Positions 18,778 to 19,758 of a stretch of DNA of 64,000 nt are shown in pieces. Both the position numbers and the translations under genes were made by a program. Every line of letters starts with the position of its first letter. Position 1 is the first letter of the stretch. Source of the DNA: a bacterium (GTDB lineage Bacteria > UBA10199 > 2-02-FULL-44-16 > JAAZCA01); the NCBI GenBank assembly GCA_963674695.2, contig CAXXGI010000003.1, forward strand, positions 416,001 through 480,000, in the 5' to 3' direction. The notes below the pieces were generated by a model. That model was not told the origin of the DNA and did no database searches. It saw nothing but the letters and a program-made list of their open reading frames with translations.

Positions 18778-18851
18778 TGCGGGGTAGAGCAGCCCGGTAG
18801 CTCGTCAGGCTCATAACCTGAAGGTCGTCGGTTCGAATCCGGCCCCCGCTA
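18778..18851 (+). tRNA. tRNA-Met (CAT), initiator type; CCA not encoded
   Basis: TGCGGGGTAGAGCAGCCCGGTAGCTCGTCAGGCTCATAACCTGAAGGTCGTCGGTTCGAATCCGGCCCCCGCTA; 1:72 mismatch; close to canonical tRNA-fMet. Confidence 0.95.
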
Positions 18852-19433
18852 CACATAAAAAAGGGTCCCGTTGTTTGGGACCCTTTTTTATGTGTATTTG
18901 GGTCAGGTTTCGAGGCGACTGGTTCCGACCTTCTGAAAAGCGGCTCGCCGAATAGGCGAGCTCTATAATGCTGAAGTCCTGGAACGTGTGAAGCGCGTTC
19001 CAGGAGTGTCCGGCCCCCGCTACACATAAAAAAGGGTCCCGTTGTTTGGGACCCTTTTTTATGTGTATTTGGGTCAGGTTTCGAGGCGACTGGTTCCGAC
19101 CTTCTGAAAAGCGGCTCGCCGAATAGGCGAGCTCTATAATGCTGAAGTCCTGGAACGTGTGAAGCGCGTTCCAGGAGTGTCCGGCCCCCGCTACACAAAG
19201 AAAAGGTCCCGTTGTTTGGGACCCTTTTTTATGTGTATTTGGGTCAGGTTTCGAGGCGACTGGTTCCGACCTTCTGAAAAGCGGCTCGCCGAATAGGCGA
19301 GCTCTATAATGCTGAAGTCCTGGAACGTGTGAAGCGCGTTCCAGGAGTGTCCGGCCCCCGCTACACAAAGAAAAGGTCCCGTTGTTTGGGGCCTTTTTTT
19401 ATATGTTGGGGTCAGGGTTTGAACCGACCGGTT
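18838..19433 (+). repeat. tRNA-linked tandem repeat, 171/171/170-bp units plus a diverged fourth partial unit
   Basis: TCCGGCCCCCGCTACAC starts at 18838, 19009, 19180 and 19350, each followed by a terminator hairpin. Confidence 0.95.
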
Positions 19434-19758
19434 CCGACCTTCAGCGGTTTCGGCACTCCGAAGAGGAGTGCCTACAATAGTTGAAGTGCCGGGGAGTGTG
19501 AGCGCGAGCCGGCCGACCTTCAGCGGTTTCGGCACTCCGAAGAGGAGTGCCTACAATAGTTGAAGTGCCGGGGAGTGTGAGCGCGAGCCGGCCGACCTTC
19601 AGCGGTTTCGGCACTCCGAAGAGGAGTGCCTACAATAGTTGAAGTGCCGGGGAGTGTGAGCGCGAGCCGGCCGACCTTCAGCGGTTTCGGCACTCCGAAG
19701 AGGAGTGCCTACAATAGTTGAAGTGCCGGGGAGTGTGAGCGCGAGCCGGCCGACCTTC
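19434..19758 (+). repeat. 79-bp tandem repeat, 4 identical units plus a 9-bp remnant
   Basis: CCGACCTTC starts at 19434, 19513, 19592, 19671 and 19750. Confidence 0.95.

Follow-up and report, generated by a model that had tools for sequence, protein, structure and literature searches.

Why should a transfer RNA (tRNA) gene be followed by tandem repeats that each carry a segment antisense to the 3' half of that same tRNA? The question is raised by positions 18778-19969 of a 64,000-nucleotide (nt) stretch of bacterial DNA, referred to here as the window (GenBank assembly GCA_963674695.2, contig CAXXGI010000003.1, positions 416,001 to 480,000). The locus contains an initiator-like tRNA-Met(CAT) gene followed by two tandem arrays, with units of 170 and 79 bp. 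A first-pass annotation proposed that the antisense segment could invade or sequester the T-arm of the initiator tRNA and so control its maturation or, alternatively, that it records template switching or tRNA-primed copying. The answer favoured here, with a probability of about 0.6, is that the segment is the left arm of a composite element that resembles the RtT repeats of Escherichia coli and arose at the DNA level, and that it does not serve as a device dedicated to the initiator tRNA. Judged by its design, the element is a set of RtT-like tRNA-trailer repeats with a new conserved module, designated M1.

The composite element consists, in order, of a tRNA gene, a palindromic terminator, an antisense arm (A'), a GC hairpin (hp1), the motif GGTTC(GA), M1, a direct copy of the tRNA 3' end and another terminator. 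Arm A' is the reverse complement of the T-loop, the 3' strand of the T-stem and the 3' strand of the acceptor stem of the tRNA. The composite is a partial extra copy of the tRNA with its T-loop split by M1, preceded by a mirror image of the same tRNA end. In the genome that contains the window, this layout is also found behind the genes for tRNA-Gly(CCC), Ser(GCT), Arg(TCT), His, Glu(TTC), Glu(CTC) and Gln(CTG), and overall it occurs behind at least 11 kinds of tRNA gene. The feature that is constant across copies is the split of the T-loop after TTCGA: sister loci read GTTCGA, M1, tRNA end, and the window reads GGTTC, M1, TCCGGCCCCCGCTACA. In the window, tandem amplification has affected the composite unit (3.6 x 170 bp) and, once more, M1 by itself (4.1 x 79 bp).

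The tRNA-Met locus and its antisense arm

The features of the locus are as follows (TRF, Tandem Repeats Finder; R1, a covariance model of M1; REP, repetitive extragenic palindrome; MITE, miniature inverted-repeat transposable element).

18778-18852, + strand: tRNA-Met(CAT) gene, initiator-like, CCA not encoded (ARAGORN; Rfam tRNA, 62.3 bits; sequence)
18838-19442, + strand: 170-bp tandem array, 3.6 copies, 96% matches (TRF; motif positions)
18851-18895, no strand assigned: palindrome of unit 1 that resembles a bidirectional terminator (A-tract, GC stem, T-tract); the later units have theirs at about 19022, 19193 and 19363
18900-18919, + strand: antisense arm A' of unit 1, mirroring the T-loop and 3' end of the tRNA, with identical copies at 19071-19090 and 19241-19260
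18920-19011, + strand: M1, 170-type copy (CGACCTTC box, hairpin hp2, TGAAGT box, hairpin hp3), including 7-nt flanks (model R1, 70.9 bits)
19091-19182 and 19261-19352, + strand: further 170-type M1 copies (model R1, 70.9 bits each)
19009-19024, + strand: direct tRNA 3'-end copy (T-loop onward), 3' of M1, with more at 19180-19195 and 19350-19365
19408-19428, + strand: antisense arm A' of unit 4, the best-kept arm of the window (alignment, motif positions)
19434-19758, + strand: 79-bp tandem array, 4.1 copies with 100% identity, made up of M1 modules that lack tRNA ends (TRF; model R1)
19429-19520, 19508-19599, 19587-19678 and 19666-19757, + strand: R1 matches in the 79-bp array (model R1)
19751-19772, + strand: truncated 5' part of another M1, cut by the next element (sequence)
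19771-19917, no strand assigned: REP/MITE-like palindromic element, inserted beside the array and no part of the unit (dozens of genomic copies)
19916-19938 and 19950-19969, + strand: last terminator-like hairpin and degenerate fifth antisense arm, respectively (sequence, motif positions)

The tRNA-Met(CAT) is called initiator-like because its first acceptor pair is mismatched. The 170-bp array starts inside the T-loop of this gene (position 18838). Each unit contains, in order, the last 16 nt of the tRNA (starting at 18838, 19009, 19180 and 19350), the palindrome of A-tract, GC stem and T-tract, the antisense arm, GGTTC, the two-hairpin M1 and the next tRNA end. The first-pass description of the unit (tRNA end, hairpin, anti-tRNA, hairpin, tRNA-like, hairpin) is correct as to structure. 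The terminator-like hairpin between the tRNA end and the arm has 19-21 bp and is accompanied by a T-tract; because the arm sits after it, only read-through RNA would contain the arm. Pieces covering the unit and the junctions match unitigs from three DNA runs of one study with 0 differences. No unitig from these runs spans either array, and the copy numbers of 3.6 and 4.1 are those of the assembly.

The arm is the outer part of a 43-nt palindrome that is 81% complementary and centred on the terminator loop (18827-18869 versus 18877-18919). The antisense segment itself is real, in that it stands above shuffled controls. When the arms are aligned with the reverse complement of the tRNA 3' half, the observed score is reached by 0 of 2000 shuffles for unit 4 and by 16 of 2000 for unit 1. 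Folding, a check suggested in the first pass, also sets the trailer apart from shuffled sequences: the tRNA, terminator and arm form one extended predicted hairpin (-79.2 kcal/mol, z -6.9, 0 of 200 shuffles). This hairpin takes up the tRNA from position 43 to its end and, in silico, beats the cloverleaf in the read-through RNA.

What the window arm lacks is a distinct match to its cognate tRNA. Among the 43 tRNAs of the genome, the cognate scores 14 against the unit-4 arm and three others score 13; against the unit-1 arm, the cognate is only third of the 43. When the last 16 nt of the tRNA are taken alone, the cognate has a z of -0.5. As the cognate is not distinct, much of the window-arm match is therefore generic T-loop. 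The CGACCTTCAG part of the match (ten matched bases) is the invariant 5' box of M1, which also adjoins tRNAs for Gly, His, Ser, Glu, Gln and Arg. The likeness of a further part of the unit to the anticodon arm, which had also been noted, is weak (score 9, a tie with tRNA-Glu(CTC), reached by 17 of 2000 shuffles).

These numbers bear directly on tRNA-primed reverse transcription, for which the arm would serve as the primer-binding site. The arm is complementary to a tRNA 3' end, and at some sister loci the complementarity includes the CCA. In the window, only 10 of the 16 mirrored positions form Watson-Crick pairs and 1 more a G-U pair, versus a criterion of an exact complement of about 18 nt. 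The two RVT_1 matches of the genome are a single gene region on contig C2, which is not the contig of the window, and no retroelement features flank the units. A primer-binding site is a scarcely credible explanation of the arm.

M1 and the composite across tRNA genes and genomes

M1 is a conserved, folded module of 75-92 nt. Model R1 detects 20 copies in the genome (E-values of 8e-7 or lower), and a reading of their flanks places all 20 beside tRNA genes or tRNA 3'-end fragments. M1 is found in 12 of the 13 genomes of the family and in 16 of the 93 genomes of the class; 11 of these 16 are among the 12 other family members. Of 43 M1 matches with flanks read, about 32 lie in a T-loop or tRNA-end context, 9 do not and 2 are unclear. 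A pattern scan gives matches in 4 genome records and 14 metagenome contigs. Eleven of the 14 contigs were read, with the composite layout at tRNA-His, Asn, Gly and one unannotated CAT-anticodon tRNA end. A pattern scan of viral contigs gives no matches. Individual positions recur across genera: M1 lies behind tRNA-fMet in at least four genera (genomes G000, G001, G008 and G021), a fifth genus has a remnant there, and four genomes (G000, G007, G008 and G012) from three genera have M1 behind tRNA-Gly.

No known RNA family accounts for the module. In an Rfam scan of window positions 18000-20600 and six sister loci, only tRNA passes, and other matches are far below the gathering score. In hp3, 7 of 11 pairs vary on both sides, with a covariation score reached by 0 of 500 shuffles, and one U-G wobble is conserved in 19 of 20 M1 sequences. 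Because of this covariation and the kept wobble, the functional strand of M1 is the tRNA-sense strand. The CGACCTTC and TGAAGT boxes are near-invariant across copies. RNAalifold run on the raw MAFFT alignment recovered hp3 alone, because hp2 was misaligned.

Four other interpretations of M1 were dropped. Derivation from tRNA-fMet was considered, and the 3' 45 nt and 5' 14 nt of 10 copies match tRNA-Met no better than other tRNAs. A TAnAAT box was considered as a promoter; a consensus scan finds no better than 9-of-12 matches, which occur on both strands, and M1 copies do not conserve the box. A hammerhead or K-turn reading of the boxes was dropped by eye, as conserved core bases are missing. 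An IS91-type GTTC target was dropped since the M1 flanks vary.

M1 is not the only insert. Others, designated M2, M3 and M4, occupy the same T-loop position at tRNA-Ser(GGA), Gln and His, and in relatives. The partial tRNA copies vary in their 5' extent and are constant at their 3' ends; one relative has copies that start at the anticodon arm.

Several individual loci show how these parts are combined. M2 and M1 have a common CTACAA..GAAGTG box. At the tRNA-Gln locus L017 (G000:C1:17400-18100), an intact gene is accompanied by an inverted, perfect 14-nt arm and by a partial copy whose T-loop holds two M2 modules; the locus also has a complete second copy with M1 inside the T-loop and its own terminator. 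Behind tRNA-Ser(GGA) (L024, G000:C2:658600-659550) lie three tandem units of about 193 bp, which have the composite design with M2 as the insert. M4 (loci L036, L033, L068 and L070) starts with CGACCGAGGC, includes GCCGAGGAAGT and comes after M1 or takes its place. A tRNA-Asn-like gene of the genome, which has no ARAGORN call, is split by a group I intron (G000:C1:924071-924432, - strand, or L078:122-483; Rfam RF00028, 71.4 bits) and is followed by an M1 composite. Among the relatives, the anticodon loop of one tRNA-fMet (L026, G008:C108) holds an intron-like insertion of about 640 nt with an open reading frame (ORF), and a broken extra fMet copy in another (L003, G005:C51) lies beside a small ORF that is GIY-YIG-nuclease-like by eye. 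Between tRNA-Lys and tRNA-Glu (L023, G000:C3:722426-722529), a 7-nt tandem repeat arranged in inverted blocks takes up the spacer.

The arms differ greatly in their state, from 16 of 16 matches to unrecognisable. The expectation that trailers track their cognate tRNA holds at some loci and not in the window: the arm against the tRNA 3' end ranks first of 43 tRNAs at Gln(CTG), Ser(GCT), Ser(GGA) and Thr(CGT). The Ser(GCT) arm is complementary at 16 of 16 positions, and its composite has a predicted 4-way junction with a 14-bp closing helix between the arm and the tRNA-end copy (z -8.5). For the window unit, only a weak closing helix is predicted. As a pairing partner for the right end of its own composite, the arm comes first in 3 of 18 loci and among the first three in 8 of them.

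The first-pass remark that mismatches are biased towards G-U pairs is borne out at the family level, where arm mismatches favour changes that keep G-U pairing on the sense strand. In mirror register, 29 loci have 62 G-U versus 18 A-C mismatches, as compared with 240 versus 316 in slid registers; these counts come from related loci and are hence not independent. Of the 464 mirrored positions in these 29 loci, 152 show neither a Watson-Crick pair nor a transition.

Control of initiator-tRNA maturation by an invading trailer arm can be weighed against these results. The extended hairpin that outcompetes the cloverleaf in silico, the G-U bias and the persistence of the arm behind tRNA-fMet in 8 genomes of three families all fit a primary transcript in which the arm sequesters the T-arm. 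The design, however, is not restricted to tRNA-fMet. In the window, the arm is decayed, not cognate-specific and downstream of the terminator T-tract, and arm decay is heavy at many other loci. Such a role for the arm is improbable.

Possible origin and spread of the element

The proposed model for the origin of the composite is as follows. At the terminator and hp1 hairpins, synthesis by fold-back or template switching would produce a copy, an inverted copy and a copy of the tRNA end. Unequal crossing-over would then yield tandem arrays such as those of the window. Fresh arms would be perfect and would later decay, while M1 would spread among the T-loop copies of a genome via gene conversion or transposition. 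Should transcription read through the terminator, the RNA is predicted to fold into a multi-helix structure closed by pairing of A' with the tRNA-end copy, forming a mimic of the acceptor and T-stems. By analogy with E. coli RtT, tRNA-processing enzymes would trim this composite RNA.

A fold-back or template-switch origin is plausible because copy, inverted copy and copy are joined by short perfect hairpins. Of the alternatives raised in the first pass, the template-switch record is the one that the anatomy fits. With respect to M1, the nearest relative of a copy is at another locus of the same genome in 24 of 42 cases and at the same tRNA of another genome in 2 of 42. Because M1 clusters by genome yet stays at the same tRNA loci across genera, the pattern points to one of two processes: repeated insertion, or exchange or conversion among the loci of a genome.

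In a different explanation, M1 and M2-M4 are selfish DNA: small, non-autonomous mobile elements that enter T-loop DNA or hairpin tips and survive only in duplicated, spare tRNA copies, the composite RNA having no role. Clustering by genome and not by tRNA is consistent with this, as are the presence of at least three other insert types at the same T-loop position, the 100% identity of the 79-bp units, and partial tRNA copies that vary in 5' extent at a constant 3' end. In addition, some M1 copies lie at the apex of other, unrelated long palindromes, and a homologous palindrome is found with and without an M2-like insert (L045 versus L056). Mobile DNA of this kind does not readily account for the orientation of M1, which is always that of the tRNA even though TTCGAA is palindromic. 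Nor does it account for the retention of M1 at the same tRNA loci across genera (fMet and Gly) or for the sense-strand wobble bias of the arms, and no matching transposase lies beside the loci. The selfish-DNA explanation is possible, if doubtful.

The repeated tRNA 3' ends also recall integrative elements. They could be attachment-site (att) scars of islands that entered the T-loop and were stacked in tandem, with their interiors lost. Direct repeats of the tRNA end from the T-loop onward are what such scars would look like. In one relative (L016/L038), a partial tRNA-Gly end with a composite behind it has an integrase gene as its neighbour. Low-GC, foreign-looking DNA lies 3' of the Gly array, and the displaced Gly end departs from the functional tRNA at a single base, where it agrees with the version of the relatives. 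The 170-bp units, however, have no coding capacity, and the module occurs at at least 11 kinds of tRNA, whereas the genome has 5 integrases, none of which adjoins these loci. The 5' half of the T-stem, expected at attR, is missing in most copies, M1 splits the would-be crossover region, and the inverted arm is not predicted. At tRNA-Glu(CTC), M1 is cut by a possible island, for which no second site of the far end was found within 60 kb. An origin as island relics is very unlikely.

Comparison with E. coli RtT and other known systems

The copy, inverted copy, copy arrangement is a feature shared with quasi-palindrome template switching and inverted triplications, which are likewise joined at short, hairpin-forming inverted repeats. 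Such triplications include origin-dependent inverted-repeat amplification and tandem inversion duplications, the latter reported from Salmonella. In these systems, arm identity is extended outward, and there is a tie to highly transcribed DNA (PMC3820800, PMC4689423). Those cases involve kilobase segments or point-like corrections, whereas here 20-45 bp of a tRNA end are involved, together with an inserted module.

Integration at a sublocation within the T-loop is an idea said to have been put forward by Williams in 2002. Integrative islands likewise leave direct repeats of tRNA or tmRNA 3' ends behind an intact gene, tandem arrays included (PMC3146451), and in relatives these tRNA loci are indeed occupied by islands. 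Unlike island att repeats, the units described here are 170 bp long, non-coding and equipped with an inverted arm, and no integrase adjoins them. An integrase and island between the tRNA and a repeated 3' end were not found; the nearest Phage_integrase match (C3:410059-410574) is about 24 kb from the tRNA.

REP sequences, bacterial interspersed mosaic elements (BIMEs) and MITE-like repeats are also short, structured intergenic modules that occur in many copies and undergo homogenisation within a genome. M1 differs from REP/BIME sequences in its link to T-loop copies of tRNAs, always in one orientation, in its conserved boxes that are not palindromic, and in its retention at orthologous tRNA loci across genera. 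The REP/MITE-like element at 19771-19917 has copies on all three contigs and in relatives, and is also inserted into hp2 of the M1 behind tRNA-Arg(TCT). A Y1_Tnp match at about 58227-58469 of the window (- strand; similar to IS200 transposases and to REP-associated tyrosine transposases, RAYT) lies in a 262-aa open frame, one of four such genes in the genome; it may encode the enzyme that moves this REP-like family.

The closest known system is RtT of E. coli. Repeats downstream of tyrT in E. coli were recognised decades ago. At tyrT/tyrV of E. coli K-12, a 178-bp unit is present in 3.1 copies and extends 19 nt into tyrV, as compared with 170 bp, 3.6 copies and 16 nt in the window; in both cases, tandem units of about 170-180 bp begin inside the tRNA T-loop. 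Both units carry an arm, which in E. coli is 22 nt long and 86% complementary to the T-arm of tRNA-Tyr. The E. coli unit reads arm, a GAGAA-type altered T-loop complement, GGTTCGA, an insert of about 67 nt, and AATCC with the tRNA end. The GAGAA-type complement is common to the E. coli units and several of the sister-locus arms. The Rfam RtT family (RF00391; gene rttR) matches four units in E. coli with 133-138 bits, and its consensus closes with pairing between the arm and the tRNA-end copy. According to two reports, rtT RNA is derived from a repeat unit by cleavage of the tyrT transcript and may have an influence on the stringent response, with a mode of action that is given as unknown (10.1101/2024.07.17.603846, PMC3318445).

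There are also clear differences. The arm in the window mirrors the upstream tRNA end through the terminator palindrome, unlike that of E. coli RtT, and the insert is a different conserved module, M1. The two sets of repeats agree in layout, with no match in sequence. RtT is known from one tRNA-Tyr operon, whereas the element described here is found behind at least 11 kinds of tRNA and in 12 of the 13 genomes of the family. The E. coli K-12 locus (1286709-1287262, L077) was also read in its own right: its 178-bp unit has a T-arm split after TTCGA and an anti-tRNA arm. No mention of this T-arm-split reading was found in the literature searched. In the same literature, T-loop-split tRNA copies with mirror arms are not described beyond rttR; this applies to main texts, as the multicopy families of Geobacter bemidjiensis (PMC2996986) are placed in supplements.

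Several observations weigh against classifying the element as RtT-like and its arms as products of DNA rearrangement. RF00391, for which family membership begins at 45 bits, gives no match at E-values up to 10 in window positions 18000-20600 or in six sister loci; the element is therefore called RtT-like by design and is not a member of the family, homology not being shown. Each unit here has a strong terminator-like hairpin, which E. coli RtT units do not have. The sense-strand G-U bias could reflect selection on RNA pairing, in which case the arms would not be merely relics. With respect to the criteria for IS200/IS605 or REP/RAYT elements, hairpins are present and the left flank of M1 is GTTCGA or GGTTC in tRNA contexts, but this 5' flank varies in the 9 copies outside tRNA contexts. 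Finally, an enzyme for the spread of M1 was not found in the genome, which has no TnpB; it has 4 Y1_Tnp/RAYT-like, 2 IS110-type and 5 integrase genes, none of which adjoins these loci.

A more far-reaching reading is tentative. E. coli RtT might be one member of a broad and old class of RNAs, in which the split T-loop of an acceptor/T-stem mimic, formed by an anti-arm and a tRNA 3'-end copy, houses a cargo domain. With such a mimic, tRNA processing would excise and stabilise the cargo. M1-M4 would be new cargo RNAs that move between tRNA loci, and the mirror arms would be selected RNA helices, in line with the G-U bias, and not only the scars of rearrangement.

Taken as RtT-like composites, these loci give a concrete picture of how tRNA 3' ends can give rise to palindromes and tandem arrays. 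They also carry a warning for annotators, who should take such arrays neither for broken tRNA genes nor for the scars of islands. The repeats of E. coli tyrT looked like a one-off, and the same design with other inserts is now found behind many tRNA genes of an uncultured bacterial family. A single curiosity becomes a class that is open to comparison, in which the conserved parts (the M1 helices and boxes) can be set against the parts that decay (the arms).

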